From NCBI GenBank assembly GCA_964401835.1, contig CAYNZP010000006.1:34020-98019 (forward strand): 64,000 bases of DNA. Direction: 5' to 3'. Source of the stretch: an uncultured Planctomycetaceae bacterium (GTDB taxonomy: Bacteria; Planctomycetota; Phycisphaerae; SM23-33). A program made the translations under genes and the position numbers. Positions 31,468 through 57,344 of this stretch are shown here, in pieces. Under the pieces are notes generated by a model that was given only the letters and a program-made list of their open reading frames with translations, was not told where the DNA came from and did no database searches. How positions within the stretch are numbered: position 1 is the first letter of the stretch; each line of letters starts with the position of its first letter.

Positions 31468-31760
31468 AAAGAACCTTTAAGCAATCCAATAACTCATTAA
31501 GTACAAAGCGACCTTGGGGTTATAAAGTAATCACAGGTTGCAATATGGTTATCGGACTAATGGGGCGAAAACTTCAGTAGCAATTTGAGAAAGCGAACAG
31601 CTTTTTTGACATGGAGTTGAGCTAATAGCCTCTATTTTGTATACTTAGAGCCTGTCCTGATAACAATGCGGCTCCGCGTGGTTATTAGGAAACCTGCTAA
31701 CCTATCAGCAGCAAAGTGGAGCAGTTGATTCGGGCATTTCTTTTTTATAAGGGTGAAAAC

Positions 31761-32615: not shown

Positions 32616-32710
32616 GGCAAACACCAGTATCCAGTAGCCTGTAGTTATAATTTACATTGGTACGATATGCGAAGATAGTTGTGGACGAATATTAGTAAGG
32701 AGACAGAAAA

Positions 32711-32950
32711 ATGCGTTTAAGCTTTGGTGATAAGAGGGAAAAAATACGCCTTTTATGTTTGCTGCTTTTGGGGATTTTGTGGTTTGTTCTATATTTACTT
32801 GAAGTCAAAATGATATTTCATCTTATTGCAGTATTAGGTGTATGTGCTTATTTTGCTTCTTTTATCCTATTGCCACCCAAAAAGCATAGGCATCATCTAG
32901 GCAAAAGTGGCGATGATGAAAAAAAGGCGTGTGGAATGGAGATTAGGTGA
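32711..32950 (+). CDS. hypothetical small membrane protein (in the AT-rich island)
   Basis: Two predicted TM helices. Local GC is much lower than the surroundings. Confidence 0.3.
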   Translation: MRLSFGDKREKIRLLCLLLLGILWFVLYLLEVKMIFHLIAVLGVCAYFASFILLPPKKHRHHLGKSGDDEKKACGMEIR

Positions 32951-33122
32951 GGGATCACCACGAAGCAGTGAGTAGGCCATGCAACTTGCCACATGGCAAC
33001 AAAACATTACGACAGATACCGCATTATTGCGGGAAGATGCGATTTGTTATGCAACGAGTTGCATAACCTACAAACTGCCGTTCTCATGGACGATAGTGCA
33101 AGGGGAATAGTTCGGGACAGTT

Positions 33123-33764
33123 ATGAATAAAATGCCTAAAAACCCTCGACTAATGGAAGTTTTAATTAATAACTTACCAAAACCACCCAAGGGTGTTTAC
33201 TTTAGGTACATAGCTCGGAAGAAACAGCTTTACATAAAAGCTGGCATACACCCTCATATTCTCTTTGCATGCCTACTTTGGGTATGGGTACCTATCTATT
33301 TGTTTCTTATGGTACCCTGTGGGGGCAAGGATCTGCTTTTTAAACTTGTTGATGTTATTGTTAATCCAATAGCCTCATATCTTTCTACCTCATCCCTTGT
33401 TATTATAGATATCATTGTGTCCTTGACGCTGCTTTGTCTATCTGTGGCGATTTTGGGTTTACCACTTATTTTCATCATCCGCTTTTTTCGGGCAAGACTC
33501 TGTATCGCGGATTCAAGTCTAAGTATTTCAGGAATTCGTACCCAACGATGGGATTGGAATAGGAACAGAACGATCCAACTTGTTCGGGCAAATAAGAGAA
33601 GGGGTGGCGCGAAAACTATTGCTCAACCCGAGAACACATCAAGAGAAGAACTCGTGATTAATGTAGGCAAAATGAGAATTAATTCCGACCAACTCGAATG
33701 GATTAATAACGTTTTAGTTGAACTTGCTAAACTGTCGCAGGGCAATACGGGGACGGAGCACTAA
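33123..33764 (+). CDS. hypothetical membrane protein (in the AT-rich island)
   Basis: 3-4 hydrophobic helices. AT-rich codon usage unlike the neighbouring genes. Confidence 0.4.
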   Translation: MNKMPKNPRLMEVLINNLPKPPKGVYFRYIARKKQLYIKAGIHPHILFACLLWVWVPIYLFLMVPCGGKDLLFKLVDVIVNPIASYLSTSSLVIIDIIVSLTLLCLSVAILGLPLIFIIRFFRARLCIADSSLSISGIRTQRWDWNRNRTIQLVRANKRRGGAKTIAQPENTSREELVINVGKMRINSDQLEWINNVLVELAKLSQGNTGTEH

Positions 33765-34420
33765 TAAGGGAACATCCCAACGCACTAAAACCCGCCACGA
33801 AACAGAATAACCAAGAAAGCAATTTAAGCAGCATTTCAAATAACCAAAAGGGCAGCTGACTTCTATAAAAGCTTGGCTGCCTTTCCATAGCTCGAATATT
33901 TTGCAAAAATTCTAGGTTTTCGCGCCCTTCGACCTCGCAGGGCAGATCTTTGACAATTGAATATGGGTTAAAATCCGGTACATAGTAGCCCGTGGCCGGT
34001 AGTCAGTAGTCTGGCCGACGTGACAGCGTGGATGAAAGCGGCGGGTGGCATGGCTAGCTTGCAAGCCATGTTCTCGATTCAGGCAACACGCCTTGCGAGC
34101 AAGACGTGCCACACAAAAATCCCAAAAATTTCGGCATAGCGTGCCAACCCGGCGGTGTTTTTCAACGTCGATTGATAGAGCACAGCGTTTAAATGCGGTG
34201 TTAAAAATTTCGAAAAATTCTTCTCATGGCCCGGCCGGGGTTTAGATGCACTGCCGAATTTTTACGTTACCGCTTTGCGCGCGAAGTGGGGGTTTGGGCA
34301 GGTATATATGGAAGGACTATCTTTCCCGAAAAACTTCAGCATTTTTCGTTTTTTGACAATTAAATAGGCGATTTTGAACTCAAGTCCATCAACAGCCACG
34401 GCTTAAGCCATTTAAAAACT

Positions 34421-34584: not shown

Positions 34585-35991
34585 CTAAATAACCTCAGCC
34601 AGCGTCGTTTTGCCGAGAGATTCACGGGCCAGGCCCTCTACTCGTGATATCCGTTGCGATATCTGCAAATCGAAATTTTCGACAGATAGATCCTTTTCGA
34701 CCGTGCTGATTTCCATCAGTTCCAGCAGCGATATCTTCTCAGCCGGGCGGGCAAGGACGTATGCCTCCTGCAGGTCCGATTCCACTGGATAGACAATTCC
34801 GATGGCCCGCAGTCGTGTCATAATCTTCCCGACCGACGATTCAGGCAAATCAAGCGCGGCAGCTATTTGCTCCATGCTCACCGGCCCGCTACCCTGGCTG
34901 TATGGCTGGGCGACAGCGAAAGCTGCTCCGAGCAACCGGGAATAACTGACTGGCTCTCCCTCTTCGACTGCGTGAATATTCATCCCGGATAAACTTATTG
35001 CGGCATGGGCAAGCTCCGCACCAAAAAGGAATATCAGCCATGAGAGGTTCAGATACAGTAAAAATATTGGAAGCAGGCCCAACGCTCCATACAGGCTGTT
35101 CTTGCCGACCTCGCTGACATAAAGCCCGAACCCCCACCGCGCGACCAGCCAAAGTGGAAGCGCCACAATCGCACCGCCGGCTGCAGCGCGAAATGGTACG
35201 CGAGTGTTTGGCATCAGAGAGTAAATCGCCGCAAGCAAAATCAATCCGATAATCACAGGCCCGATCCATATGGCTGCGGAAACTATCCAGGATACTCCGT
35301 CGTTATCCTCTATCCCGCCCATTATCTGCTTGCCAGCGTAAATCGCACCAGCCATCGCCACCGGTACCAGTGTCAAAACGGACCAATAGACCAAAATCCT
35401 CCGCACAAGAGACCTGCTGCGTGGAGCGGCAAAAATCCGGTTAAGCGACCTTTCTATTGTGGTCAACAAGGTAAGCGCCGTCCAAATCAACAAGACAACG
35501 CCGATGGGACCGATTTTTCCAAGAGTGAGTTTTCGCTCGATCTTCTTTACGAGTTTTTCAATGTGGCCGGATACGGTTATCACATCATTTTCTCTGCGGC
35601 GTCTCCTTGGCCTTTGAGTTTCCTGCTCACCCAGCTGGGATGTTGAAGCATCTTTAAAAGATTCTCTTGCAGGTCGCTTTTCGGTCACGATCTGTATCTG
35701 CGAAAAGCCAACTCCCTCCAGAATATCGCTGAGACGTATATCGCTTTTTTCCACAACACCTACAGATTTCAGCACAAGCAGCGATAGCACAAGAACAGGA
35801 ATCATCGCAAAAAGTGTTCTGAACGAAAGCGCCGCGCTCATCGCCATGGCGTTATGCTCATGAAGCCGCCGGCCACAGAGTCGCCAGAGTTGGATATTAA
35901 TCTTTACAAGCTTTGCCCATCGGCCTAACTCGTCTCCTGGTGCGGTAAGAAGTGTTCTTATACGTTGGCGGAGCTTGCTGATTATTTTCAT
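34585..35991 (-). CDS. YihY/BrkB (virulence factor BrkB / RNase BN-like) family membrane protein with a C-terminal extension
   Basis: Six TM helices with the YihY signature (MSAALSFRTLFAMIPVLVL ... NLSWLIFLFGAELAHA). Confidence 0.75.
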   Translation of the reverse strand: MKIISKLRQRIRTLLTAPGDELGRWAKLVKINIQLWRLCGRRLHEHNAMAMSAALSFRTLFAMIPVLVLSLLVLKSVGVVEKSDIRLSDILEGVGFSQIQIVTEKRPARESFKDASTSQLGEQETQRPRRRRRENDVITVSGHIEKLVKKIERKLTLGKIGPIGVVLLIWTALTLLTTIERSLNRIFAAPRSRSLVRRILVYWSVLTLVPVAMAGAIYAGKQIMGGIEDNDGVSWIVSAAIWIGPVIIGLILLAAIYSLMPNTRVPFRAAAGGAIVALPLWLVARWGFGLYVSEVGKNSLYGALGLLPIFLLYLNLSWLIFLFGAELAHAAISLSGMNIHAVEEGEPVSYSRLLGAAFAVAQPYSQGSGPVSMEQIAAALDLPESSVGKIMTRLRAIGIVYPVESDLQEAYVLARPAEKISLLELMEISTVEKDLSVENFDLQISQRISRVEGLARESLGKTTLAEVI

Positions 35992-38900
35992 TCCGGCTTT
36001 TCCTTTTTGTCTTCGTCTTCAAGTGTGCCGCGAAGAATATCAAATATTGTATCGCCAATATCCTTGTCTTTGGAAGGACGCTTTTGGGGTTTATCTTCGC
36101 CTGGCGGAAGTTGGGAAGGAGATTCTCCGCCGGGAATTTTGAAAATGTCGCCGACCTCCCCGGCTTGTTCGAGAATTAATATTTGAATCGCCCGCCTGAT
36201 AAGACCATCAACATTGACCCGCACAAAGTCCAGAACTGGATTGAGGCGGCTGCCGACAATTGGTATGTCTATCCGCGTTCCATTCAGCACGCGCGCATAA
36301 TCGATAACAGGCCCGCCCACACCAAGTTTATCCAGAAGCTCCGGGCTGATTGGCAGTGAGACGACCAGGTTAACCGTGTCGTCGAAACCGACCGAACCGT
36401 AAAACTTCATATCGAAATCATCGCTAAGTCTCATGACGAAGTTGTCATACTGAATTCGGCCGTTCCTTATCACAAAGTCGACACCGTCAACTTCGACAGT
36501 CTGTTTTTCCTGGCTGGAAAGCGTGCTTAAAAGCAACAGCTGCCTGAAAAGGCCGGTCGGCTGAATCTTCAGATTCCTTAAATCCATATATCCCCTGCCC
36601 CCGCCACCTTGCTTGATGCTTTCACCCAGCGGCAGCGATATATCCCAAGTCTTTAGCGAGACCTTGCCTTCAATTTCCGCCTGACGTGCAAAAATGGGGT
36701 TTATCCTGCTTAATAATTCATCAGCCAGCTCACGGTTGATTTCGACATCTTCCATAACCTGCACGACCCCCGGCAACTGATAGCGAGGCTCGGTCGGCTG
36801 AAAGTCTACCAGGCCCCCCATACGCAACTTTCCGCCCGAAGCGGCAACCGCCGAAACTGGAATGTTGACTCGGCCATCGTCCAGCTTCGCTTCCAGTGTC
36901 GCCCGGCCAAGATTCAGGCCATAAAGCCTGCCGCTATCCCAGCCGAAATTGCTTTGAGCATCGAGACCTTTAAAACCAGGCCTGACGTCTTGCTGACTTG
37001 TCGGGCCGGTCGCACTGAAACTGCTGTTGCGAGAACCCGTGAAGCTGATATTGTCGGCCATCGAAGGGGAAAACTCGCCAAGAAGAGTGGAAAGGCGGTC
37101 CATGTTAACCGTGTAATTTCCGGTAAGTTCGACGATGCGGTCCGTGTCATAGCGCTTTAAATTTCCCGACATTTTTCCGCTTACGAGCCTGGAATTCACC
37201 TCTGCTCTTCGCAGCACAAGGGATTTTTCCTGCTGGTCCAACTCAGCTTCGTAACTAAATTGTGCTTTGGGCTCGCTGAATTGCTTTTCCTCTCCGATGA
37301 CAAAGTTTGCGATTTCGCCTCTGCCGGTGCTGGTAACGGCAGAACCTTTTGAATCAAAGCGACCCGTCCATTGCAGCTCGCCTTCTATAGCAGGCTGCTT
37401 CTTTAGTTCCAAGGTTTTCTTGATTGCGGGCATCGCTTTGCTTAGGTCGCTGTTAATATCGAACGTACCGTTAAGGCTGAGTGGTTCTGTCAGCTTGCAA
37501 TTGATTCCCCGAAAATCGACCCTGGCAACATCACTATCGACAGAGGCCTGTGGAATCTTCAGAGTCTTGTGTTTCCGGGCAAAAGTACTCTCAGCCATAT
37601 TAAAAAGGATATTCCTTTGCGTCACATTCTGGCCATTTACCCGCAGGTCCTCTATTCGCCCGTTTGCGGAAACTGTGATTATCTCTTTCAGAGAAGCCTT
37701 GCCGACTTTCGCATCTGCGGCCAAAATGCCTGAATACTTTTTCAAACCCTCCATACCAAAATAGTCTGCCCGTCGGCCGAGGTAGGCAATTTCGGATGTA
37801 AGTTTTGCGTCGCCTTCAAAAGTCTTCTGCTTGAAATCGTACCAGCCGTCGCCGGAGACAAAAACCGACTCATCAATGCCAAGCTCATTTTCGCTGGCGA
37901 TATACCGCACGGGCTTTTTGTCTTTCAAAACCAGATTGCCTTTATGGCTGAAATCCGCTTTGGCAAAATCCAGATCCCGCTTAGGTGTTTCATATCTGAA
38001 TGAAGAAATATTTGCTTTAACCGCAAAATCAAGCCGGTCTTTTTGAGGGCGGATCACATCAAGTCTTCCTGTCAGATCACCCCAGAGCCGCCCGTCAGTA
38101 AGCTCGAAAATTTCGCCAAATTGCCTGTCAAGTTGCTCAAGGTTCAGGCTGAAATCCGTAGTCATATTATCTGCGGACGCATTTACCTCCGCATTTCCGA
38201 ATCCGGTTTTGATATCCCCGAAAAGTAACACGCCCCGCTGCTCTTGGGAATCGGCGGAGATTCTCAAGACAATAGGCTCGGAGCGGATTATTCTGCCGGC
38301 TTTGGTAGCCTGCAAATCTTTTAGTTCCACTCTCGCTTTGGCAGTCGGTGTTTCACCGCCAATGACAAGGAATTCCGAAATATCCAAGCGCCCCTGTTGA
38401 ATATCAACGTCTCGTTTGAGTTTCATAACAGCCGGAATCGAATCGCCAAGAGTAGGAAGATCGATTTTCCCGGACGCCTCAAGATTGAACTCAGACAATT
38501 CAAGATGCTCGCCAGCCATGGCCGCTGAGGCAATCTTGTCCGCCTTGAACTTCGGAAATCCCTTATCACGCGGATAGATGAGCAAGGCCTGGAATTCACC
38601 CGCCCTACTGGCAACGGAAAGCTCACCTTTGACATTTGACTCATCCGGCAAAAGCCTGCCGACAACTGAAACATCTATAGGCTTTATTTCTACCGCCCCA
38701 TCGCGCGGGGTGTGAAGATCGGTTATCGTGGCATCAAGGTTGCCAGTTAGCTGCCGGCCTTGCTTGAGGGTCGCGTCAATTTCCAGACTCAGCTTGCCGG
38801 CTACCACGGCATCTTCCAGTGCGAACTCTGTCAACGACGCCAGGTCGATATTGTAATCGCTGAAGACCCTCACCTCCCCGTTGGCCCGGTCAGGGGTTAA

Positions 38901-39641
38901 TTTGCCGTCCTGCAAAAGCTCCCTTATCTCGAGCTCGCCGCTCAGAACCCCCTGCTGGCCAAGTTTTGCCTTCAGACCGCCAGTGATTTCGTTGAGCGTA
39001 TTGAGCTCAAATCCACCGTTGATATCACGAACGTCATAACTCCGCCCATCTTCTCTGACAAGTTGAACATTCATATCCCGCAGAATCAATTTGCCTTTGG
39101 GTTGGGGCATGGGTTCGTCGTGGTCGTAAGGTTTTGGTTTGCTTGGCTCTAGCGCCTGAACTAATGATATTCCGCCGTCATCAGAGATATGAAGAACCGC
39201 ACTGGAATCATCAAGGTTAACCTGTTCAAAATTTTCGACTTCTGTAACAGCTCTCCAGACACCGCCAGCCCAGCTTATATTCTCAACTTCCAGAACATTC
39301 CGACCGCCGACGTCCTTTACGCTCAAGCTGTTAATCTTTGTAGGTCCAAGCCACGAAATTGAAAGGTCTTCGGCCTCGATGTCTCCCTTTACCTGCCCGC
39401 TGAGAATTGAAAAGGCCAAACTTGTTCCGGGCCCGGTGGAAATCAAATATGGCAGGATGAAAACGAGCATCGTGAGGAACACCGATAAAGAAACAATCCA
39501 AATCAATCGCCTGTGTTTGCGCTTTTTACTAACGGTAGCTTTTTTTATACCGTGTTTCATAGCCCGCCTCCCCATTAAGAAATGACCCCTACAAGGGCCA
39601 AACGTAAGCCAGAATTCTTCATAACATTCTATCAACGACAC
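35988..39641 (-). CDS. AsmA/TamB-like giant envelope protein (1217 aa)
   Basis: N-terminal TM anchor followed by a long beta-rich region with an AsmA/TamB-like N-terminus. Overlaps yihY by 4 nt. Confidence 0.7.
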   Translation of the reverse strand: MSLIECYEEFWLTFGPCRGHFLMGRRAMKHGIKKATVSKKRKHRRLIWIVSLSVFLTMLVFILPYLISTGPGTSLAFSILSGQVKGDIEAEDLSISWLGPTKINSLSVKDVGGRNVLEVENISWAGGVWRAVTEVENFEQVNLDDSSAVLHISDDGGISLVQALEPSKPKPYDHDEPMPQPKGKLILRDMNVQLVREDGRSYDVRDINGGFELNTLNEITGGLKAKLGQQGVLSGELEIRELLQDGKLTPDRANGEVRVFSDYNIDLASLTEFALEDAVVAGKLSLEIDATLKQGRQLTGNLDATITDLHTPRDGAVEIKPIDVSVVGRLLPDESNVKGELSVASRAGEFQALLIYPRDKGFPKFKADKIASAAMAGEHLELSEFNLEASGKIDLPTLGDSIPAVMKLKRDVDIQQGRLDISEFLVIGGETPTAKARVELKDLQATKAGRIIRSEPIVLRISADSQEQRGVLLFGDIKTGFGNAEVNASADNMTTDFSLNLEQLDRQFGEIFELTDGRLWGDLTGRLDVIRPQKDRLDFAVKANISSFRYETPKRDLDFAKADFSHKGNLVLKDKKPVRYIASENELGIDESVFVSGDGWYDFKQKTFEGDAKLTSEIAYLGRRADYFGMEGLKKYSGILAADAKVGKASLKEIITVSANGRIEDLRVNGQNVTQRNILFNMAESTFARKHKTLKIPQASVDSDVARVDFRGINCKLTEPLSLNGTFDINSDLSKAMPAIKKTLELKKQPAIEGELQWTGRFDSKGSAVTSTGRGEIANFVIGEEKQFSEPKAQFSYEAELDQQEKSLVLRRAEVNSRLVSGKMSGNLKRYDTDRIVELTGNYTVNMDRLSTLLGEFSPSMADNISFTGSRNSSFSATGPTSQQDVRPGFKGLDAQSNFGWDSGRLYGLNLGRATLEAKLDDGRVNIPVSAVAASGGKLRMGGLVDFQPTEPRYQLPGVVQVMEDVEINRELADELLSRINPIFARQAEIEGKVSLKTWDISLPLGESIKQGGGGRGYMDLRNLKIQPTGLFRQLLLLSTLSSQEKQTVEVDGVDFVIRNGRIQYDNFVMRLSDDFDMKFYGSVGFDDTVNLVVSLPISPELLDKLGVGGPVIDYARVLNGTRIDIPIVGSRLNPVLDFVRVNVDGLIRRAIQILILEQAGEVGDIFKIPGGESPSQLPPGEDKPQKRPSKDKDIGDTIFDILRGTLEDEDKKEKPE

Positions 39642-46578: not shown

Positions 46579-47865
46579 CTAATCGTAGCGGCATATTATG
46601 AGCGTGTCGTTCTGCCCGCCGAAGCCGAAACTGTTCGACATAACCACATCGACCTTAGCCTTGCGAGGCTCGTTGGGAATGTAATCCAAATCGCATACCG
46701 GATCGGGTGTGCTGTAGTTTGTCGTAGGCGGTAGTATCTGGTCGCGAATTGCCATAATGCCAGTGATTAGTTCAGTTGCACCAGCTGCCGCAATCAGGTG
46801 GCCCAGCATGCTCTTGACGCTGGAAATCGGGACCTTTGTGGCGAACTCACCAAAGACCTGCTTGACAGCCTTCGATTCCACTTCGTCGTTCTGCTGCGTG
46901 CTCGTGCCGTGCGCTGAGATATAATCAATATCTTCCGGTTTGACCTTGGCATCGGCCAGGGCTGCTCTCATGCTCGCAGCTGCACCATCGCCCTGTGGGT
47001 CCTGGTCGGTAATACGGAAGGCATCTGCACTTGAACCGAAGCCGATGATTTCGGCCAGGATATTTGCTCCGCGAGCTTTGGCCAGTTCGTAATCTTCGAG
47101 AATAATTATGCTCGAGCCCTCGCCGAGGACGAAGCCGTCTCGCGTTAAATCGAACGGCCGTGATGCCGTTTCAAAGCCCTCATTGCGGGTCGAAAGCGCG
47201 TTGAGGCGGTTAAAGCCCGTAACGCCGTATGGATGGATCATGCTGTGCGCGCCGCCGGAAATAATCGCGTCACAATCGCCATGACGGATCTGCATCGCTG
47301 CTTCGCCAAGGGCCTGCGTGCTGGCGGCACAGGCTGTGAGTACATTAAAGGCCGGCCCCTTTGCGCCGAACTGGCCGGCGATGTGGGCCACGACCATATT
47401 GGACTCCTGGGCGATTTCGCGATAAACGTCCATACGCTCCAAGGCCAGGTCAGCCCAGACCTTTGTATCCACCTTGCCGTCATTCCAAGCGTCCACCATC
47501 AACGAGGTGAAGTTGTCGAAGTCGAGACTTCCTTCACCGCTGCCGAGATAGACGCCCAACCGGGAGTAATCCAACTTGTCATATTCACCAAGACCCGATT
47601 GCATCCACGCTTGATGACCGGCTGCCAATGCAAATGTGCAGTGTCGGCCAGCGTGCTTGTGTTGTTCGGCGTTAGGAAAATGATCTTTAAGGTCGAAATT
47701 TTTTACGTTCGCACAAAAAGTCGTCGGGAAATGGCTGGCGTCGAACAGCTGGTTCTTGTTGACCCCGCTCTTGCACTCGAGCAGCGCAGCCCAGGTGCCT
47801 TCCACATCATGGGCGAGTGGATTAACCGTTCCAATTCCCGTTATGACTACGCGTCTTTTTGCCAT
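46579..47865 (-). CDS. beta-ketoacyl-ACP synthase (KAS I/II type) with a canonical catalytic triad
   Basis: Active-site Cys in LTACAAS, His in AHGTSTQQND, and His in SVKSMLGHLIAAAG. Confidence 0.85.
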   Translation of the reverse strand: MAKRRVVITGIGTVNPLAHDVEGTWAALLECKSGVNKNQLFDASHFPTTFCANVKNFDLKDHFPNAEQHKHAGRHCTFALAAGHQAWMQSGLGEYDKLDYSRLGVYLGSGEGSLDFDNFTSLMVDAWNDGKVDTKVWADLALERMDVYREIAQESNMVVAHIAGQFGAKGPAFNVLTACAASTQALGEAAMQIRHGDCDAIISGGAHSMIHPYGVTGFNRLNALSTRNEGFETASRPFDLTRDGFVLGEGSSIIILEDYELAKARGANILAEIIGFGSSADAFRITDQDPQGDGAAASMRAALADAKVKPEDIDYISAHGTSTQQNDEVESKAVKQVFGEFATKVPISSVKSMLGHLIAAAGATELITGIMAIRDQILPPTTNYSTPDPVCDLDYIPNEPRKAKVDVVMSNSFGFGGQNDTLIICRYD

Positions 47866-47872
47866 TTTTTTC

Positions 47873-49186
47873 TTAGTTAACTTTTTTAAATACGCACGCG
47901 GCGCTCTGTCCGCCGACGCTGAATGCGGCGGTCACTATATGATTAATTTCGCACTTTCGAGGCTCGGATGAGAAGTTCAGGTTGCATCCATCCGCCGCAG
48001 AAGTGAAATTCACTGTCGGCGGTACGGCTTGAGCTTCCATCGCCTTTGCTGCAACAGCCATCTCAACACCACCTGCACCGGCAAAGAGCGAACCAATCGA
48101 GCCGGTAATGCAGACAGCCGGAATTTTTTCTGCCGCGTCCCCAAGAGCCACCTGCCAGGCCTTCGCCTCGCAAATGTCTTCGCCAGCCACGCCCGTGCCG
48201 TGAGCAATAATCATATCTACCTTGTCTGGTGTTATCTTCGCTTCGGTCATCGCCTTTGCAACAGCCAGGTCCAACGAGCCGGCGTTCGATTTGGTGATAT
48301 CGAAGCCTGTCGGATCACAGGCTGCACCAAAGCCAGCCATTTCGGCATATATTTTCGCACCGCGCGATTTAGCACGGTCCATATCTTCGAGAATTAAAAG
48401 TCCCCCACCTTCACCGACAACAGTTCCATCATGATCGGCATTGAAAGGTCGGCATGCAGTTTCGGGGCTTTCGTTTCGGCTTATACAAATTCGTTTGAGA
48501 AGCAACTGGCGAAGCAGCACCATCGGGTTGACCTTGCTCTCGGCTCCGCCGGCAATAGACACATCCGCATCGCCCCGCTGAATGACCCTCGCACCCTCTC
48601 CGACCGAGAGGTGCCCTGAAGCGTCGCCGCAGGTAATGGTATTGCTGGGCCCTTCGGCTCCATGAATAATCGTAACGTGGCAGGAAAGCATGTTCGGCAG
48701 ATACTTCAAAAGCCAAAGCGGTGTGAGATTGCTACTTCCTGTATGGCCCCACGCCTTGATATCAAATTTGCCGTCAACAACAGCCGTGTTGACAGCCATG
48801 CCTAGTTCATCGAGGTCGGTACAGATAAGCCCCGCCCCAATATTGCAACCCAGACGGCCGGGCTCGATATCCATCTCGCCATCCATGCCGTGAGTTGTAA
48901 TTCCTGAATCTTTAAATGCGAAGTCCGCAGCGGCTACGGCGAGTTCTATATCTCTGGCCATGACCTTGACCGACTTGCGGTAAGTTTTGGGGACAAACTT
49001 GCGGGCGGAAAAATTATCTATCTGTCCGCCTGCGTGGCATGGAAAATGACTTGGATCGAACAGGTCGATCGTTTTGACACCCTGGTGAGAGGATAAAAGT
49101 GCCTCCCAAAGAGCATCAATGCCGAGCCCGGAAGGCGTAACTACCCCAAGGCCTGTAATAGCAACTCGGCGTTCAGCCATTGCCAC
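47873..49186 (-). CDS. beta-ketoacyl synthase-like protein, partly degenerate (chain-length-factor-like partner)
   Basis: KS fold with a Cys (ITCGDAS) and the first His (AHGTG). The second catalytic-His motif reads GSIGSLFAGAGG, not GHxxGAAG. Lies 8 nt upstream of the canonical KS. Confidence 0.75.
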   Translation of the reverse strand: MAMAERRVAITGLGVVTPSGLGIDALWEALLSSHQGVKTIDLFDPSHFPCHAGGQIDNFSARKFVPKTYRKSVKVMARDIELAVAAADFAFKDSGITTHGMDGEMDIEPGRLGCNIGAGLICTDLDELGMAVNTAVVDGKFDIKAWGHTGSSNLTPLWLLKYLPNMLSCHVTIIHGAEGPSNTITCGDASGHLSVGEGARVIQRGDADVSIAGGAESKVNPMVLLRQLLLKRICISRNESPETACRPFNADHDGTVVGEGGGLLILEDMDRAKSRGAKIYAEMAGFGAACDPTGFDITKSNAGSLDLAVAKAMTEAKITPDKVDMIIAHGTGVAGEDICEAKAWQVALGDAAEKIPAVCITGSIGSLFAGAGGVEMAVAAKAMEAQAVPPTVNFTSAADGCNLNFSSEPRKCEINHIVTAAFSVGGQSAACVFKKVN

Positions 49187-49649
49187 CCTCCACGAATGGC
49201 GCTATCAGCCGTTCGAACTGGCCGGTAAAGACGAAATTTTCTTCGGGGAATTTGATTCCAGCCTGGTTCTGGTCAACATGCGAGAACATCAGGTCTATCT
49301 GACCTATCTGCTGGCCGTTTTTCTCGACGATGCCCTTGGTAGATGCAGCCTGTTCGCTGACTACGTCTATCTCTGCCTTGTAAAGAATCTGATCGCCTGG
49401 GACGACGATATCATCAATTTGGGCCTTGGTAACTTTTGCCAGGACTACCTTTTCCTCGAAATTACGAGCCTGTCCGACAAGAATTCCAGCAGTCTGTGCC
49501 ATGCCCTCTATCATCAGTGACATAGGCATTATCGGATACGCTTCCCAATGGTCATGAAGATGCTCCTCAGCGAGGGAAACGTTCTTTACCGCCACGGCCT
49601 TTTTACCGGGCTCGAACTGCTCAAATCGGTCAATCCAAATCCAGCGCAT
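49173..49649 (-). CDS. FabZ/FabA-like hot-dog 3-hydroxyacyl-ACP dehydratase
   Basis: HLHDHWEAYPIMPMSLMIEGMAQTAG. Overlaps the KS-like gene by 14 nt. Confidence 0.8.
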   Translation of the reverse strand: MRWIWIDRFEQFEPGKKAVAVKNVSLAEEHLHDHWEAYPIMPMSLMIEGMAQTAGILVGQARNFEEKVVLAKVTKAQIDDIVVPGDQILYKAEIDVVSEQAASTKGIVEKNGQQIGQIDLMFSHVDQNQAGIKFPEENFVFTGQFERLIAPFVEGGNG

Positions 49650-49754
49650 AGTGATTCTCGATTAGCTAGTGACGAAAAATCTTTTGTGGGAATTGCCCCT
49701 AACGGCGCATTGCATCCGGCCACAACCGACAATTCGTCAATCGACAATAAACAA

Positions 49755-50141
49755 TTAGCCAACTTTGCCAACGACATAGTTGACGATTGTCTGGACCTTG
49801 AACAACTCGGCCATCTTGTTGATGTCCGGGTCCTGCTCAAAATCGCTGAAGTCGGCGTGGGGCATCTTTTCCTTCAGTTCGGCCAGGCCTACATCGGTAA
49901 GTTTGCCATCCTGAACGAATTCCGGATTATTAAGAATGTTGTCCGGGAAAAGCTCGCCTCTGGGGATCTTAATGTCGAAGGCTTTTTCAAGCCTGAAGAC
50001 GATGTCCAAAAAGTCGATGGACTCGGCGCCAAGGTCACCTGTCAGAGTCGCTTGGGGGGTGACTTCGTCGTCGTCAACACCCAGAGCCTCAACCAGAGTT
50101 TCCTGAACTTTCTCGAAGACTTCTGCTTCGCTCATCGGCAT
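49755..50141 (-). CDS. acyl carrier protein (extended, 128 aa)
   Basis: Phosphopantetheine attachment motif DLGAESIDFLD. Confidence 0.75.
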   Translation of the reverse strand: MPMSEAEVFEKVQETLVEALGVDDDEVTPQATLTGDLGAESIDFLDIVFRLEKAFDIKIPRGELFPDNILNNPEFVQDGKLTDVGLAELKEKMPHADFSDFEQDPDINKMAELFKVQTIVNYVVGKVG

Positions 50142-50280
50142 AACCTGCTATCTCCTCTATTTTTTCCAAATCTAGCTTCCGGCCCTGTCTTCCATGTGCA
50201 TCGCCGGAGTCATATGTATAGGAATTTAACCGTCAAAAGTCAACTTTACAAAAACCTTTAAGGCGGACTTTAAGACTTTC

Positions 50281-50775
50281 TCAAGCTTTGCAAGCCTCCA
50301 GGGCCTCGGGGCCGCCGGCCAGCTTGAAGTTGTCTTTAAGCTGCTGGATTATCTTCTCGTCAGCCCAAGCGAGCTTGGGATCACGATCAGCCAGATTAAA
50401 ACTCTCAAGTTCCAGCCTTGCCGAAACGGTCTGGGCATCGCCAACATAGGCTGCAGCTTTGAACTTTGCGCCGCTTTCATCGATCGACATTGCCTCAATT
50501 TCACAGCGCATCATATCGCCCGGCTTGACAAAATTCGCATAACGTGCATTTCTGACTGCTTTTAGCTTCACGATGCTCTTGGCAAAATCCTGCTCAACTC
50601 GAACCAACCAGGCCGCGGACTGAACCATAGCCTCGATCATCATCACCCCCGGCAAGACAGGAAAAGCCGGAAAATGGTCGGCCAGATACTCCTCGGCAAG
50701 CGACAGCGCCTTGGTGGTCACTATTCCCTTACCGGGTTCGATAGATTCAATTTTATCTACCAGAATAAATTTCAT
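50281..50775 (-). CDS. FabZ/FabA-like hot-dog dehydratase (second copy)
   Basis: LADHFPAFPVLPGVMMIEAMVQSAAWL. Confidence 0.8.
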   Translation of the reverse strand: MKFILVDKIESIEPGKGIVTTKALSLAEEYLADHFPAFPVLPGVMMIEAMVQSAAWLVRVEQDFAKSIVKLKAVRNARYANFVKPGDMMRCEIEAMSIDESGAKFKAAAYVGDAQTVSARLELESFNLADRDPKLAWADEKIIQQLKDNFKLAGGPEALEACKA

Positions 50776-50880
50776 TTTTTGCCCTGTAAATAATTTGGAT
50801 TTGGGGCCTTTTATTCACTTTTTGCCCTTTATGCAAGACTTTTTTGTTTTCACAGGTCCTAATTTAGCCTGGCAAAAGGG

Positions 50881-51996
50881 TTAAGACGCCAAATCGACCA
50901 GGATATCCAACCCTTCGGCGAGTTTCTCATCGCTCGTTGCATACGATATCCTGAAGTGGCTGTCCTGCTTGGAAAATACATTCCCGGGAATTACCAAAAC
51001 ATTCTTCTCTATTGCCTTTTTGACGAAATCAGTGGCATTTCCGCCCGGAGCCGGAACAAAGGAATAAAACGCCCCGCCGGGTTTTGTAAGCCCAAAGGCC
51101 GGACTCAGCTTTTCGAATACCATGTCACGTTTTCTCTTATAGTCCCCCACCTGCTTCGACATATCTGTATTGAGAGCTACCACCCCTGCCGGCTGGGCCA
51201 TGCTCGGAGCACAGACAAAGCTGTACTGTTGCAGCATGGTCATCTTTTCGATTATCGGCCTGGGCCCGGTGCACCAGCCAAGCCGCCACCCCGTCATGGC
51301 ATAACTCTTCGAGAAGCCTCGCATCAGCAATGTATTCTCGTATATCGATGCCATGGAGACAAAGGGCTCGTCGTAACAAAAAAGATTGTATATTTCGTCG
51401 GAAATAACTAGCAGGTCGTGGGTGGCTGCGATCTCGGCGATTGCCCTCAGCTCATCCTCGCTATAAATAGCACCGGTCGGGTTGGCAGGTGAGTTTACTA
51501 TCAGCATTCGGGTCTTGTCAGTGATTGCGGCCTCGATTTTTTCCGGGCTCGGCCTGAAGTCCGGATAAGTGTCCACCGGAACCGGCACACCGCCAGCAAG
51601 ATTGACCAGGTGAGAGTACATCACGAAATACGGATCGGCGAATACGACCTCCTGGCCGGGATCGACCAGTGTCAGCATCGCCAGCATCAACGCTCCACTG
51701 ACTCCGGAGGTTATCAGGTAAGGCCTTTCATTATCCCAGCCAAACTCTTGTCCGCACGCTTGTGCGATGGCTTGACGAAGTTCGAGAGTTCCCTGAGTCT
51801 GCGTATAGCGGTTCTCGCCACGCCTGATCGCCTCAATTGCCTCGTCTTTGATACCTTGGGGCACTTCAAAGTCAGGCTGACCGATAGAAAGATTTATCGG
51901 ATCTTTCATCTTCGTAGCCAGATCAAACACCTTGCGTATGCCAGAGGCGTCAATCAGATTCATTCGATTCGATATTGAATTGATCTTTTCGCTCAT
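50881..51996 (-). CDS. class I/II PLP-dependent aminotransferase (AspAT-like)
   Basis: NPTGAIYSEDEL. PLP-Lys region GFSKSYAMTGWRLGW. Confidence 0.85.
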   Translation of the reverse strand: MSEKINSISNRMNLIDASGIRKVFDLATKMKDPINLSIGQPDFEVPQGIKDEAIEAIRRGENRYTQTQGTLELRQAIAQACGQEFGWDNERPYLITSGVSGALMLAMLTLVDPGQEVVFADPYFVMYSHLVNLAGGVPVPVDTYPDFRPSPEKIEAAITDKTRMLIVNSPANPTGAIYSEDELRAIAEIAATHDLLVISDEIYNLFCYDEPFVSMASIYENTLLMRGFSKSYAMTGWRLGWCTGPRPIIEKMTMLQQYSFVCAPSMAQPAGVVALNTDMSKQVGDYKRKRDMVFEKLSPAFGLTKPGGAFYSFVPAPGGNATDFVKKAIEKNVLVIPGNVFSKQDSHFRISYATSDEKLAEGLDILVDLAS

Positions 51997-52097
51997 TGGA
52001 CGAGATTTTTACGGCACGTTTTGGGCTAAGAAAACCGCCCGTCCCAATGGGACGAGCGGAACTGTCGAAATATCTTTATTCAGGCAGCGGAATTATT

Positions 52098-52370
52098 TTA
52101 TTCAGCTTTTTCCTCAGCAGGTGCTTCCGCAGCTTCTGCTCCTTCTACACCTTCTGCAGCTTCGGGGGCTGCTTCTTCGGCGGCGGCCTTCTTGGATTTG
52201 CTGCCAGCCTTGGATTGGCGCACCTTTGTCTTCTGCAGGCCTATAGGAGAGTCCTTGTCCGGGTCAAACTTACCTTCTTCTGTCATCATGGCAATCCGCT
52301 CCGCACGCGTCAGTACGCTACGAACCCCTTTAAGCCCGCCATGAACCTTCAATGTTCTGTCAATCGACAT
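52098..52370 (-). CDS. small basic protein (Planctomycetes-type 'Sbp'-like), 90 aa
   Basis: N-terminus MSIDRTLKVHGGLKGVRSVLTRAERI, followed by a Lys/Ala/Glu-rich tail. The family assignment is from memory only. Confidence 0.5.
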   Translation of the reverse strand: MSIDRTLKVHGGLKGVRSVLTRAERIAMMTEEGKFDPDKDSPIGLQKTKVRQSKAGSKSKKAAAEEAAPEAAEGVEGAEAAEAPAEEKAE

Positions 52371-53366: not shown

Positions 53367-54143
53367 ATGGCAAATGGCTTCATAGGTGATTTCAGGAGAT
53401 TCTTTGTCCGCGGGCTTGCGGTCGTACTACCTCCGCTGCTTACAATTGTTATCCTGGTCTGGATTTTCAGATGGGTAAATAATTACATAGCCCAATATAC
53501 CAATATCGCCGCCCAGTGGGTTGTCGTTCAGTATCTGGCAATAATGGAAAAGGTACCCTTCAGCCTGGCTGGAAAAAATGAACTTTGGGATGCTACAAAA
53601 GCTCTCTGGGAACAATACCATCTTTGGTGGATAGGCTTTATTTTAGCATTTGCAGGCATTTATGTGCTTGGCAAATTCATGGCTTCCTTCCTCGGCAGAG
53701 GCACATGGCGGATTATCGAACGAACTTTCTTCAGTCTGCCCGGAATCAAGGCGATATATCCATATGTCAAGCAAGTAACAGACTTTCTGTTATCTGAGCA
53801 GCGAGTGGAATTTTCCCGCGTTGTTGCTGTAGAATATCCACGTAAGGGACTTTGGTCGATCGGGCTCGTAACCGGCCCCGGCATGCGGAAATTAAGGAGC
53901 GCCGCAAACAGCGATTTGCTGACAATTTTTATTCCATCAAGTCCTACGCCGGTTACCGGGTATACAATTACAGTGAAGAAGGATGAAGTTATCGACCTGC
54001 CAATAACCATTGAAGAAGCACTTAAATTCACGGTTAGCGGGGGCGTGATTATGCCAATAAATCAAATGTTGAGCGAAGCGGAAATAGACAAGGCCAGACA
54101 GGGCGTATTTCCCGCTTCTCAGCGAAAGGAGACGCAAGAGTGA
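53367..54143 (+). CDS. DUF502 family membrane protein
   Basis: LAVVLPPLLTIVILVWIF ... SRVVAVEYPRKGLWSIGLVTG ... IPSSPTPVTGYTITV. ATG at 53367 with an AAGGA SD. The ORF-track start at 53307 is less likely. Confidence 0.7.
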   Translation: MANGFIGDFRRFFVRGLAVVLPPLLTIVILVWIFRWVNNYIAQYTNIAAQWVVVQYLAIMEKVPFSLAGKNELWDATKALWEQYHLWWIGFILAFAGIYVLGKFMASFLGRGTWRIIERTFFSLPGIKAIYPYVKQVTDFLLSEQRVEFSRVVAVEYPRKGLWSIGLVTGPGMRKLRSAANSDLLTIFIPSSPTPVTGYTITVKKDEVIDLPITIEEALKFTVSGGVIMPINQMLSEAEIDKARQGVFPASQRKETQE

Positions 54144-54493
54144 ATATTAACCTAAAGTGCCGTCACATGGACGTCACGGCAGCAATGAAAGAGTACGCTG
54201 AAACAAAGATTTCAAAGCTGACAAAGTACTACGATAACCTCCATTCCGTCGAGGTTATTTTTGATATCGAGGCAGAGCAACCCCTTGTAGAAATAATCGT
54301 AACTGCTTCCCGCAAAGCAACTTTCGTCGCCACCCATCGAAACGATGACCTGTATGCCTGTATTGATGTCTGCTCAGATAAGATATCCCAGCAATTAAGG
54401 CGTCATAAGGATAAGGTCAGAAACCGCCATAGCGCACCCCTGAGTGAGACGAGCATGTCCCAAAGCAAAACGCTCGAGTCAGAAGGCGAATAG
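54140..54493 (+). CDS. hpf: ribosome hibernation promoting factor (HPF/RaiA, sigma-54 modulation protein family)
   Basis: MNINLKCRHMDVTAAMKEYAETKISKL ... YACIDVCSDKI. GTG start with AAGGAG 8 nt upstream. Overlaps the DUF502 stop (GTGA). Confidence 0.85.
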   Translation: MNINLKCRHMDVTAAMKEYAETKISKLTKYYDNLHSVEVIFDIEAEQPLVEIIVTASRKATFVATHRNDDLYACIDVCSDKISQQLRRHKDKVRNRHSAPLSETSMSQSKTLESEGE

Positions 54494-54702
54494 GTAGTAT
54501 TCCGGCATATTATCGCCAGCATCCACTAGCGGGGAAGAAGGAAAAAAGTTAAACTCTTATCCGTCAAGCTGTACACTTTGGGCGCCTGTATATGTTTGGA
54601 CAAGGCCAGGTGGTTTCATGAAAACGTCCAAAACCTGTGGCTGCAGGTAATGAAAAAGAAAATTAGTTGAGAATAAACCATAGATAGTAGCAGGAGTAAC
54701 GA

Positions 54703-55170
54703 ATGAAACTTTCGGATATTGTGGTAGCTGACGCCATTGTGCCAGAACTCGATTCAAAAAACCGTAACGAAGCAATTACAGAGCTTATCGGGGCCTTGGC
54801 CTCTGCCGGTGCGATTGCAAAGAAAAATGTCCCGGAGATAACCAAGGCTGTTTTGTCAAGAGAATCTCAGGCGACAACTGGCATTGGTAAAGGCGTAGCC
54901 CTTCCGCACGCAAAGATGAAGGGAATCAAAAAACCAATTTGCACCTTTGGCCGCAGCTCAGAGGGAATTGACTTTTCGGCTTTGGATTCCAAGCCGGTCT
55001 ATTCTGTTATCCTTCTTCTCTCGAGCCCCGATAATCCGGATGAGCACCTCCAGGCTATGGAAACGATATTTAAGCACGTTCAGCGGGATATCTTCAGAAA
55101 ATTCCTTCGCCAGAGCGAAACCAAGGAAGCTATCGAAGATCTTATTAAGGAAGCTGACGAACAGAGTTAA
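54703..55170 (+). CDS. ptsN: PTS EIIA(Ntr)-type protein
   Basis: GKGVALPHAKMKG ... SVILLLSSP is the EIIA-fructose/nitrogen fold. AGGAG SD. Confidence 0.8.
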   Translation: MKLSDIVVADAIVPELDSKNRNEAITELIGALASAGAIAKKNVPEITKAVLSRESQATTGIGKGVALPHAKMKGIKKPICTFGRSSEGIDFSALDSKPVYSVILLLSSPDNPDEHLQAMETIFKHVQRDIFRKFLRQSETKEAIEDLIKEADEQS

Positions 55171-55233
55171 TAAAAACCGGGCCTGACTTGCCTGAATTGG
55201 TAAAGCGGCTTGGAAATAAATCGGTATGAACAA

Positions 55234-55515
55234 TTGGCTACTGTCGAATGCGAAGTAAAAATTCCGAATAAATACGGCCTGCATGCAAGACCTGCGATGC
55301 AGCTTGTTGAAATTGCGAATCAGTTCAATAGCAAAGTTGAAGTTAGTACGGATGCGTTGACTGTTGATGCCAAGAGCATTATGTCTGTAATGAGGCTCGC
55401 TGCGACGAAGGGAACCGTATTAAAAATCGTTGCTGACGGGAGCGACTCTGAGCAGGCTGCCAAGGCCTTGGCGAAGTTGATAAAAGCCGGCTTCGGGGAA
55501 ATGGAAGACGAATAG
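55234..55515 (+). CDS. ptsH: HPr/NPr phosphocarrier protein
   Basis: VKIPNKYGLHARPA carries the His phosphorylation site. Start is uncertain between TTG at 55234 and TTG at 55210. Confidence 0.75.
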   Translation: MATVECEVKIPNKYGLHARPAMQLVEIANQFNSKVEVSTDALTVDAKSIMSVMRLAATKGTVLKIVADGSDSEQAAKALAKLIKAGFGEMEDE

Positions 55516-55601
55516 TTTTCCAGGACATTTCGGCGTTTATCGGCATTTGTCAGAAAAATAGCATTCGCCCCGGCAGAATCGGGCAATTGGAATAAAATTT
55601 T

Positions 55602-57344
55602 ATGAAAATCAAAAAGGGCATCGGCGTTTCACCGGGCGTGGCATTCGGCCCCGCCGTGGTGCTGGATACTGAGGAGTTTGAAATTCCTCAGCGTCATGTG
55701 CCCGTTGACCATGCCCAGGCTGAATTCACTCGACTGAAAAAAGCCATTTCCGTATCCAAGAGCGAGATCAAGGACCTTCAAAAACGTAGTGCTGAGAGAC
55801 TTGGCAAGGAAACCGCGAGGATTTTTGATTTCCACCTCGGCATGCTCGATGACAAAGACCTTCAGAAAAAGTTCTCCGAGACGATACTTGGCGGAAATGT
55901 TACTGCTGAATATGCGGTCGCTACGGTACTGAGAGGTTATGCTAAAGAATTTCACACAATGCCGGACTACTTTGCGGACCGCGTAAAGGACGTCTACGAT
56001 ATAGAAAAACGTCTTCTCAGGAATCTAATCGGCCAGCACCGCCAGTCTCTCTCGCATCTCAAGCAGGATGTTGTCGTGTTGGCTCACGATATGACTCCTT
56101 CTCAGGCGGCGGCAATGGACAGAGGGCACATCAATGCCATTGCAGTGGATGCCGGCGGTGCGACGTCTCATACCGCAATTGTCGCCCGTGCCCTGGGCAT
56201 CCCCGCCGTTGTCGGCCTAAATGACGTAACCACCGAGGCATCAGCCGGTGATACAGTCATTATTGACGGTAATCGCGGGATAGTCGTTGTTGACCCGGAT
56301 GAAAGCACCCTTGAAGAATATCGCAGCTATGCTAAACAGCAGGTCGAATTCATACACAGCCTGGACGCACTGCGAGACCTACCGGCGGTCACTCGTGACG
56401 GACATGAGATTACGCTTCTGGGCAATATCGAATTTCCCGATGAAGTGCACACCGTCATAGATAAAGGCGCCTTGGGAGTCGGGCTTTATCGTACGGAATT
56501 CCTCTATATCGGGGCTGATACCGAGCCCTCAGAAGAAGACCACTACAATGCTTACAAAAAGGTGGTCGAAACGTGTCAGAATCGGCCGGTGGTTATCCGC
56601 ACGCTAGACCTGGGTGCAGACAAATATACACAGTCGCGGGCACGAGAACCCGAGAGAAACCCGTTTTTGGGTTGCCGCAGTATCAGATTCTGTTTGCAGA
56701 ACCTTCCCATGTTCAAAACGCAGATAAGAGCAATTTTGCGGGCAAGCGTTGACGCCAACACTTCCATGCTTTTCCCGTTGATAACAAATATCCTGGAACT
56801 GCGTCAGGCCAAGACAATTGTCCGCGATGTCATAGAAGACCTCGAAGAAGAAGGAATCGAGCATCGCAACGACGTGCCGATTGGAATGATGGTCGAGGCG
56901 CCTTCAGCGGCGCTTCAGTGCGGTTCTTTCGCACAGGAGGTCGACTTCTTCTCCATAGGAACAAATGACCTCATCCAGTACACACTGGCTGTCGACAGGG
57001 GCAATGAAAGGGTCGCGTCATTATTTTCAGCCGCCCATCCGGCGGTTTTGAAGCTTATTAAAGATATTATTCGCGCAGGCCAAAGGTATGATGTGCCGGT
57101 CAGCTTGTGCGGCGAAATGGCTGGTGATCCTCAATTCACCCTGCTGCTGCTTGGTATGGGCCTGAGGGTTTTCTCATGCGCCCCGCCGGCCGTACCTGAA
57201 ATTAAGAAAGTTATCCGCTCGGTGACCCTCAAGCAGGCAATGGAGGTCGCCCGGCGTGTTATGAGCTTTGATTCGGACAACGAAACAATCAATTTCCTGC
57301 GGGCCGAGACTCGCGAACTGTTACCGGAAGTCTATCTGGAATAG
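55602..57344 (+). CDS. ptsI: phosphoenolpyruvate--protein phosphotransferase (Enzyme I)
   Basis: GGATSHTAIVARALGIPAVVG is the phospho-His domain. C-terminal PEP-utilising TIM barrel (CGEMAGDP). Confidence 0.9.
   Translation: MKIKKGIGVSPGVAFGPAVVLDTEEFEIPQRHVPVDHAQAEFTRLKKAISVSKSEIKDLQKRSAERLGKETARIFDFHLGMLDDKDLQKKFSETILGGNVTAEYAVATVLRGYAKEFHTMPDYFADRVKDVYDIEKRLLRNLIGQHRQSLSHLKQDVVVLAHDMTPSQAAAMDRGHINAIAVDAGGATSHTAIVARALGIPAVVGLNDVTTEASAGDTVIIDGNRGIVVVDPDESTLEEYRSYAKQQVEFIHSLDALRDLPAVTRDGHEITLLGNIEFPDEVHTVIDKGALGVGLYRTEFLYIGADTEPSEEDHYNAYKKVVETCQNRPVVIRTLDLGADKYTQSRAREPERNPFLGCRSIRFCLQNLPMFKTQIRAILRASVDANTSMLFPLITNILELRQAKTIVRDVIEDLEEEGIEHRNDVPIGMMVEAPSAALQCGSFAQEVDFFSIGTNDLIQYTLAVDRGNERVASLFSAAHPAVLKLIKDIIRAGQRYDVPVSLCGEMAGDPQFTLLLLGMGLRVFSCAPPAVPEIKKVIRSVTLKQAMEVARRVMSFDSDNETINFLRAETRELLPEVYLE

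Follow-up and report, generated by a model that had tools for sequence, protein, structure and literature searches.

The window analysed here, a 64,000-nucleotide stretch of contig CAYNZP010000006.1 from an uncultured Planctomycetaceae bacterium, carries on its minus strand a cassette of five genes that encode, in the order in which they are read, a FabA/FabZ-like dehydratase (DH1), an acyl carrier protein (ACP), a second FabZ-like hot-dog protein (DH2), a degenerate ketosynthase resembling a chain-length factor (CLF) and an intact ketosynthase (KS). Together with an aminotransferase gene at its head, the cassette spans positions 46579–51996. The best explanation, to which we give about an even chance, is that it serves as a dedicated module for chain elongation in the making of a core lipid, probably one of the envelope, because all five proteins fall below the equivalog cut-offs of the FabF, FabZ and AcpP families and because the cassette is fixed in the core chromosome.

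The unit is the five genes DH1–ACP–DH2–CLF–KS, an order that is complete in 53 of the 62 loci with enough flanking DNA. A scan for CLF relatives that took one genome per species gave at least 600 pattern matches, at least 598 of which were confirmed, placing CLF relatives in at least 598 species genomes. The best 80 of these are labelled Planctomycetota in the database, except for one metagenome-assembled genome (MAG) deposited as 'Acidobacteriota' and one entry deposited as 'uncultured bacterium'. The deposited labels fall mostly in the class Phycisphaerae and include Sedimentisphaerales, Tepidisphaerales and Phycisphaerales, with some MAGs labelled Pirellulales or Planctomycetales. The closest CLF homologues are 63–69% identical, and those that are named are Phycisphaerae or Planctomycetota MAGs, which supports the planctomycete origin supposed in the earlier note.

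The setting is that of a core chromosome. The immediate flanks in the window are clpB, a small zinc-ribbon protein, the aminotransferase and a small basic protein, and the core genes of the window comprise pdxJ, dapA, ftsK, tpiA, pheA, priA, kdsB, pyrG and clpB as well as RNase G, rpe, pgk, a block encoding a ribosome hibernation protein (HPF), EIIA, HPr and Enzyme I (EI), and accD, which lies 8 kb from the cassette. The other loci likewise have housekeeping flanks, with serS, comEC, a GNAT protein, an ABC-2 protein and a Band-7 protein as the only recurrent neighbours. An earlier note on this DNA, made from the sequence alone, had taken the locus for a cryptic accessory cluster; its place among housekeeping genes and its occurrence in so many species genomes speak against this, and what was called a cryptic specialised cluster should rather be named a lineage-wide core cassette of unknown product.

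The aminotransferase gene stands outside this unit. It adjoins the cassette in four of 81 loci (L006, L007, L012 and L013), all of them close relatives, and lies kilobases upstream in two more; in about 75 it is not near, and in one of the other loci (L001) the gene upstream of the cassette encodes a Peptidase_M90 protein. Membership in the cassette was thus ruled out by synteny, the gene being a neighbour in close relatives only. The earlier note had left open whether the enzyme aminates the product or is unrelated to it, and the synteny speaks for the second option and against the first.

The active KS has an intact catalytic apparatus. In a MAFFT alignment Cys179, His319, Lys351 and His356 are all present together with the gating Phe413; the catalytic Cys, His, Lys and His are found in 65 of 65 orthologues and the gating Phe in 62 of the 65. 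The protein matches Escherichia coli FabF with 350 bits and is 34% identical to the CLF. At the positions of FabF Cys163, His303, Lys335 and His340 the CLF carries Asp, His, Thr and Ser. HMMER aligns the CLF segment 'tcgdasg' with 'tacatga' of Thermus FabF (1j3n), which puts Asp188 at the nucleophilic cysteine, and the MAFFT alignment concurs; Cys186 of the CLF ('TCGD') lies two residues upstream of this column. The CLF is predicted to be catalytically dead because of the Asp at the nucleophile, the Thr in place of Lys and the Ser in place of the second His. The earlier note was therefore right that only the downstream enzyme keeps the full set and that its partner has lost the second His; it had thought the nucleophilic Cys of the partner retained, and it had missed the change from Lys to Thr.

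The column counts for the CLF, taken over 81 sequences (80 orthologues and the window), extend this picture. The nucleophile column holds Glu in 47, Asp in 32 and Ala in two, and Cys in none of the 81, while the His, Lys and second-His columns drift freely from locus to locus. A nucleophile column of this kind is what one would expect if the subunit had no catalytic role and were kept for its structure. An AlphaFold2 monomer model of the CLF (predicted local distance difference test, pLDDT, 82) suggests a full-length ketosynthase fold, with Foldseek template-modelling (TM) scores of 0.83–0.90 to FabF structures. A separate feature of the family is the cysteine two residues before the nucleophile, which is present in 81 of 81 sequences while the catalytic columns drift.

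KS and CLF have an insertion of about 13 residues in common: the segment from the GSGIGG loop to ISPFF is 42–44 residues long in both, against 29–30 residues in six canonical FabFs, that of E. coli among them. In FabF and in the actinorhodin KS–CLF this segment presumably forms part of the wall of the acyl pocket, at the dimer interface. The CLF monomer model is of low confidence around the insertion (pLDDT 40–59), which fits an interface and is not evidence for one. In a rough neighbour-joining tree that carries no support values and in which the E. coli reference sequence is approximate, the cassette KS stands beside canonical FabFs, and the dead proteins with Glu or Asp at the nucleophile form a large radiation with the insertion in every member. 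The closest FabF-like representatives that lack the insertion come from Eremiobacterota, Fusobacterium or unlabelled samples, that is, from other phyla wherever a label is given. Both ketosynthase-family proteins match FabF better than the KS or CLF of polyketide synthases (PKSs), with 233 bits to FabF against 139 bits to the actinorhodin CLF.

An active KS thus adjoins a KS paralogue without the nucleophilic Cys, and the adjacency is conserved. Because the two genes are adjacent, are probably translationally coupled and are analogous to known KS–CLF pairs, we infer that their products form a heterodimer of the KS/CLF type. The earlier note had likened the pair to such heterodimers, and the case is stronger than it argued because the partner also lacks the nucleophilic Cys. 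The cassette CLF does not carry the classical CLF signature, which we take to be Gln in the Cys column together with intact decarboxylation residues.

The two dehydratases are different proteins, as the earlier note had proposed, being distinct paralogues that are 39% identical. DH1 has both the catalytic His (DHFP) and the catalytic Glu (IEAMVQ) and ends in a tail of about 40 residues, and in the window DH2 also has both residues (DHWE and IEGMAQ). The best solved matches of DH1 are FabZ and the anammox enzyme amxFabZ, which is among the best for DH2 too. Across the loci the DH1 His is present in 63 of 63 sequences and the DH1 Glu in 57, with Gln in the other six; the DH2 Glu is present in 75 of 75, and the DH2 His is replaced in 22 of these, mostly by Leu or Asn. 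Dimers of the FabA/FabZ type build every active site from both protomers, one of which gives the His and the other the acidic residue. By these counts, therefore, the site formed by the DH1 His and the DH2 Glu is never lost, the reciprocal site being dispensable. Two loci (L026 and L053) combine a His/Gln DH1 with an Asn/Glu DH2, so that both homodimers are predicted to be dead while the mixed site is intact. These substitution patterns are good indirect evidence for a DH1:DH2 heterodimer in which the DH1-His/DH2-Glu site would be the obligatory one.

The ACP carries its phosphopantetheine serine, Ser41, within DLGAESID, and this serine is kept in 70 of 70 sequences. The Pfam PP-binding domain spans residues 10–65 only and is followed by an insertion of about 45 residues (roughly residues 66–110) between helix III and helix IV. 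Helix IV of ordinary ACPs has its counterpart in the C-terminal 16 residues (LFKVQTIVNYVVGKVG), and the insertion is therefore internal. The dedicated, extended ACP of the earlier note is therefore dedicated and divergent, with the Ser in DLGAESID, and has no terminal extension. An AlphaFold2 model is of moderate confidence (pLDDT 71), and its Foldseek matches are all ordinary ACPs of 75–85 residues with the insert gapped out; the insertion is absent from every solved ACP that was matched. It is conserved, with a mean identity of 58% as against 73% for the ACP core. Over the 53 complete loci the mean identity to the window protein is 68% for the ACP, 61% for DH2, 60% for the KS and 51% for DH1 and for the CLF, and the database matches of the ACP have a full-length identity of 84–93%, the CLF of the same genomes standing at about 65%. 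Helix II (ESIDFLDIVFRLEKAF) has Arg and Lys at positions that are acidic in E. coli AcpP, and a Glu instead of an Asp precedes the Ser. A scan of the relatives' loci with an approximate E. coli AcpP sequence found the cassette ACPs only.

All five proteins score under the NCBIfam equivalog cut-offs for FabF, FabZ and AcpP. The active KS reaches 471.3 bits against TIGR03150 (cut-off 493.75) and passes the subfamily model PRK07314 (454.8 bits, cut-off 387). The CLF, with 304.8 bits, lies below the cut-off of the NCBIfam FabF equivalog, DH1 and DH2 lie below that of FabZ (94.6 and 84.1 bits, cut-off 113) and the ACP lies just below that of the NCBIfam ACP model (64.8 bits, cut-off 66). These scores favour the view of the earlier note that the cassette is not the housekeeping fab set, and the high conservation of the ACP points the other way. 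The models PRK06508, PRK06519 and PRK06501, which we take to represent the rhizobial acpXL cluster, gave 46 (cut-off 83), 87 (320) and 324 (629) bits, all far below. Kinship with the cispentacin (Amc) system was tried and rejected, with scores of 46.6 and 46.8 against 140 for AmcE, 128 and 203 against 325 for AmcF, and 23 against 80 for AmcB.

In the proposed scheme the cassette would be a self-contained module for the extension and dehydration of an acyl chain on its own ACP. The KS alone would condense malonyl-ACP with the growing chain within the KS/CLF heterodimer, in which the dead subunit and the insertion of about 13 residues shared by both proteins could shape the substrate tunnel. The DH1:DH2 heterodimer would then dehydrate the intermediate at the site composed of the DH1 His and the DH2 Glu. 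Malonyl loading (FabD), keto-reduction (FabG), any enoyl reduction (FabI) and phosphopantetheinylation would be borrowed from elsewhere in the genome. The product would be an acyl chain with a special length or degree of unsaturation that goes into a core lipid, probably of the envelope, and not into an accessory natural product. No ketoreductase, enoyl reductase, malonyl transferase, KS III, thioesterase or acyltransferase was found among the large open reading frames (ORFs) of the window, in agreement with the earlier note, which had pointed out that fabH, fabD, fabG and fabI are absent here.

Several observations weigh against a dedicated lipid module. Part of the gene order is missing in nine of the 62 informative loci, and no acyltransferase, thioesterase or reductase is linked to the cassette. 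The ACP is also more conserved (mean 68%) than the cassette enzymes (51–61%), as would fit a hub ACP with many partners, and this would suit a housekeeping role at least equally well.

Such a role is the substance of the strongest competing explanation, an unlikely but serious one, in which the cassette is the principal fatty-acid elongation machinery of the lineage and FabH, FabD, FabG and FabI are scattered elsewhere. The insertion-bearing ACP would then be the general ACP, the KS with its dead partner would stand for FabF, and DH1 with DH2 would stand for FabZ. FabF, FabZ and AcpP of the housekeeping type II fatty-acid synthase (FAS) are the best sequence and fold matches throughout, the catalytic apparatus of the KS is identical and the KS passes the FabF-type model PRK07314. 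The ACP is the best conserved of the five proteins, well ahead of the CLF on the same contig, as AcpP is relative to FabF in housekeeping systems; the site in the core chromosome 8 kb from accD, the occurrence in at least 598 species genomes and a possible dedicated promoter ahead of the ACP gene (see below) also fit. The cassette nevertheless differs from a housekeeping FAS in its apparently heterodimeric organization, in which one KS subunit is dead and one dehydratase subunit partly so, and in the insertions in KS, CLF and ACP. The five proteins remain under the FabF, FabZ and AcpP cut-offs, general ACPs have a more acidic helix II and an Asp instead of the Glu before the Ser, and the catalytic decay of DH2 and CLF is more typical of specialized modules. 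Furthermore, Kuenenia, Scalindua and Rhodopirellula reportedly possess a canonical FabF and ACP beside divergent sets (PMC2649909, PMC10139942), and the coexistence of both kinds of set in other Planctomycetota therefore lowers this explanation. Its boldest form, in which a class-level lineage of Planctomycetota rebuilt core fatty-acid synthesis around a sole ACP/KS/DH set with a 128-residue insertion ACP and obligate KS and DH heterodimers, appears rather improbable; were the cassette the only fatty-acid machinery of these bacteria, it would be one of few cases in which a core pathway has been re-engineered.

An aryl-polyene-like or highly reducing type II PKS cluster that makes a conjugated polyene pigment or lipid is far less probable. 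The parts list resembles the aryl-polyene (APE) core of ApeO/ApeC, a dehydratase pair and ApeE/ApeF (PMC8358021), there is no enoyl reductase, and the cassette would share with the APE system the logic of a heterodimeric KS and a heterodimeric dehydratase working on a dedicated ACP. Matches to the Pfam ApeI-like model are recorded on hot-dog proteins of homologues, and antiSMASH 'arylpolyene' regions occur in some Phycisphaerae isolates (PMC13514998, PMC8882080), although their identity with the cassette locus is not shown. The CLF of APE clusters is, however, about half-size with one thiolase domain (ApeC; PMC8358021), whereas the cassette partner is full-length (435–437 residues) with a complete FabF fold. 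DH1 scores only 14.3 bits against the ApeI-like model PF22818 (cut-off 28.5) and DH2 does not match it, and both KS proteins have FabF and not PKS or APE enzymes as best match. No APE accessory genes were found near the cassette, whether for an adenylating, starter-activating enzyme, a ketoreductase, a second KS, a thioesterase or LolA/MMPL export, and a housekeeping setting across mostly non-pigmented anaerobic lineages is unlike that of an accessory pigment cluster. The resemblance to aryl-polyene clusters drawn in the earlier note thus fails as family membership, on the size of the CLF, the ApeI-like score and the accessory genes.

That the six genes together make an amino-lipid, with the aminotransferase acting on a keto or acyl product to aminate it, is hardly credible: the gene is co-directional, 105 nt upstream and adjacent in the four loci named above, but none is near the cassette in about 75 of the 81, its best families are general aminotransferases of the aspartate/aromatic type, and it does not belong to the alpha-oxoamine synthases, the type found in sphingolipid-like pathways.

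With a dedicated lipid module as the preferred explanation, one functional precedent is found in rhizobia, where acpXL-fabZXL-fabF2XL-fabF1XL(-adhA2XL-lpxXL) makes the very-long-chain fatty acid of lipid A and borrows FabG and FabI (PMC11901934). The two systems share a dedicated ACP, a FabZ-type dehydratase and two adjacent FabF genes, arranged alike as ACP, DH, KS2 and KS1; neither has a ketoreductase or enoyl reductase of its own, and the rhizobial set lies in the core chromosome and feeds an envelope lipid (PMC11901934). The cassette differs in having two dehydratases that flank the ACP and an ACP insertion of about 45 residues, and no LpxXL acyltransferase or alcohol dehydrogenase gene is linked to it in the window neighbourhood. 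One further locus (L087, 3–3914) encodes a dead KS-like protein and a KS with the same insertion as KS and CLF, followed by a weak match to the LpxL family of lipid A acyltransferases and a PhyH hydroxylase, an arrangement that parallels acpXL/lpxXL.

The anammox 'ladderane' cluster belongs to the same phylum and likewise combines a dedicated ACP, a divergent FabZ and a degenerate plus an intact FabF (PMC10139942, PMC2649909). In its amxACP-amxFabZ-FabF2-FabF set the dehydratase works on amxACP and not on the canonical ACP of the organism (PMC10139942). The cassette differs in having two dehydratases instead of one and in its degenerate KS, which shows Asp/His/Thr/Ser where Kuste3606 has Val/Asn/Lys/Glu. 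It also lacks the genes for a B12-binding radical S-adenosylmethionine (SAM) protein and a phytoene-desaturase-like protein, neither of which occurs in the window locus or in the Phycisphaerae loci. Orthology to amxFabZ and amxACP was considered and is not established, because amxFabZ (58.9 bits) matched no better than an ordinary FabZ (58.0 bits); no ACP match stood out. A B12 radical-SAM gene within the cassette occurs in one distant variant only, a locus from a JGI metagenome (L085, 5102–15225) that encodes a dehydratase, the B12-binding radical-SAM protein, a 127-residue ACP, a second dehydratase, a dead KS (Asp-His-Lys-His) and a KS. Downstream of this KS lie genes for an alpha/beta-hydrolase, a GH3-family enzyme and two methyltransferases, which recalls the anammox and deltaproteobacterial clusters. 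Another variant (L086) opens with a phosphopantetheinyl transferase gene.

The KS–CLF pairs of type II PKSs (actinorhodin, 1TQY; the highly reducing Iga11–Iga12, 6KXD; AntDE, 6SMO) have in common with the cassette an active KS, a full-length paralogue without the Cys and a dedicated ACP. The cassette partner has Asp or Glu and not Gln, it is also without the His and Lys needed for decarboxylation, and no cyclase, aromatase or PKS ketoreductase is found at the cassette. A catalogue of type II PKSs contains an uncharacterized non-actinobacterial 'FAS-FAS' clade of KS pairs that includes some Planctomycetes. Rattray et al. (2009) reported Glu, His, Lys and Asn in RB4527, a FabF paralogue of R. 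baltica to which no function was assigned there, and this Glu-His-Lys-Asn pattern is the commonest among the cassette CLFs. A literature search found no paper on the cassette.

The same four residues mark a dead KS that Pirellulales and Thermoguttaceae keep as a conserved orphan, the P0179 family (L084, 8001–9272; L091, 10001–11254; L092, 10001–11272). These loci have no KS, DH or ACP neighbour, and a KS partner, if any, would be encoded elsewhere; an orphan without the cassette is therefore uninformative as to the function of the cassette.

Modules that join a dedicated ACP to a KS pair are known in few cases, namely the very-long-chain fatty acid of rhizobial lipid A, the unproven anammox ladderane cluster and the aryl polyenes. 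The cassette has an architecture of its own, with two probable heterodimers and an ACP that bears an insertion, and it is fixed in a large bacterial lineage of mostly uncultured members. The identity of its product would fill a gap in the biochemistry of planctomycete envelope lipids and would show whether the anammox cluster is a specialized offshoot of a wider planctomycete theme.

The coordinates of the cassette and its surroundings are collected in Table 1. The six co-directional genes and their families, as listed in the earlier note, were confirmed by ORF calls and by Pfam and NCBIfam assignments, and the cassette genes are not chance ORFs because each has hundreds of conserved homologues.

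Table 1. Genes of the cassette, the adjoining aminotransferase gene and the spacer with a candidate promoter, in order of reading
Feature	Coordinates	Strand	Length	Family or remark
Aminotransferase, class I/II (AspC-like)	50881..51996	-	371 aa	Pfam Aminotran_1_2, 222 bits
DH1, FabA/FabZ-like hot-dog dehydratase	50281..50775	-	164 aa	Pfam FabA, 55 bits
DH1–ACP spacer	50142..50280	-	139 nt	Candidate internal promoter and GGAGA
ACP, DLGAESID	49755..50141	-	128 aa	Pfam PP-binding
DH2, second FabZ-like hot-dog protein	49173..49649	-	158 aa	Pfam FabA, 52.9 bits
CLF-like KS, predicted dead	47873..49180 (ATG) or 47873..49186 (GTG)	-	435 or 437 aa	Beta-ketoacyl synthase
Active FabF-type KS	46579..47865	-	428 aa	Beta-ketoacyl synthase

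The tight packing that the earlier note saw in all six genes applies to DH2–CLF–KS only, where the first two genes overlap and the CLF–KS spacer is 7 nt and not the 8 nt given there; the aminotransferase–DH1, DH1–ACP and ACP–DH2 spacers measure 105, 139 and 105 nt. The overlap between the DH2 stop and the CLF start is 14 nt, as previously stated, only if the CLF starts at the GTG at 49186. The ATG at 49180, which has a GGAGG about 7 nt upstream and agrees with a 435-residue database protein (P0001), is the better supported start and gives an overlap of 8 nt (ATGGCTGA). The abutting DH2–CLF–KS arrangement is found again across the loci of relatives, and the three genes are probably translationally coupled.

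The DH1–ACP spacer contains, at about 50204–50232 on the minus strand, a sigma-70-like TTGACT-17 nt-TATACA element followed by a GGAGA ribosome-binding site before the ACP gene; it was read by eye and is absent from the list of the consensus scan. The element is a possible internal promoter of the ACP gene that could raise ACP dosage. A strong terminator-like hairpin of 11 pairs (nine of them G–C) with a T-run lies at 52035–52059 on the minus strand, between the gene for a small 90-residue protein (52098–52370) and the aminotransferase gene, which therefore appears to open a new transcription unit. An Rfam search of the window gave no RNA family above threshold.

Elsewhere in the window, the block at 54140–57344 on the plus strand encodes a ribosome hibernation/sigma-54 modulation protein, an EIIA-2 of the phosphotransferase system (PTS), HPr and Enzyme I, and resembles a nitrogen PTS without sugar permeases. 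A tyrosine recombinase gene (30190–31185) stands beside the stretch of lowest G+C content in the window (32001–34000, 0.424), which includes ORFs without Pfam matches, and 30190–34000 may be a small integrated element. Weak DUF748 matches were found at 31716–32615 (plus strand) and 35988–39641 (minus strand), one of the proteins being 1217 residues long, next to a BrkB/Rrf2 fusion-like ORF at 34585–35991.

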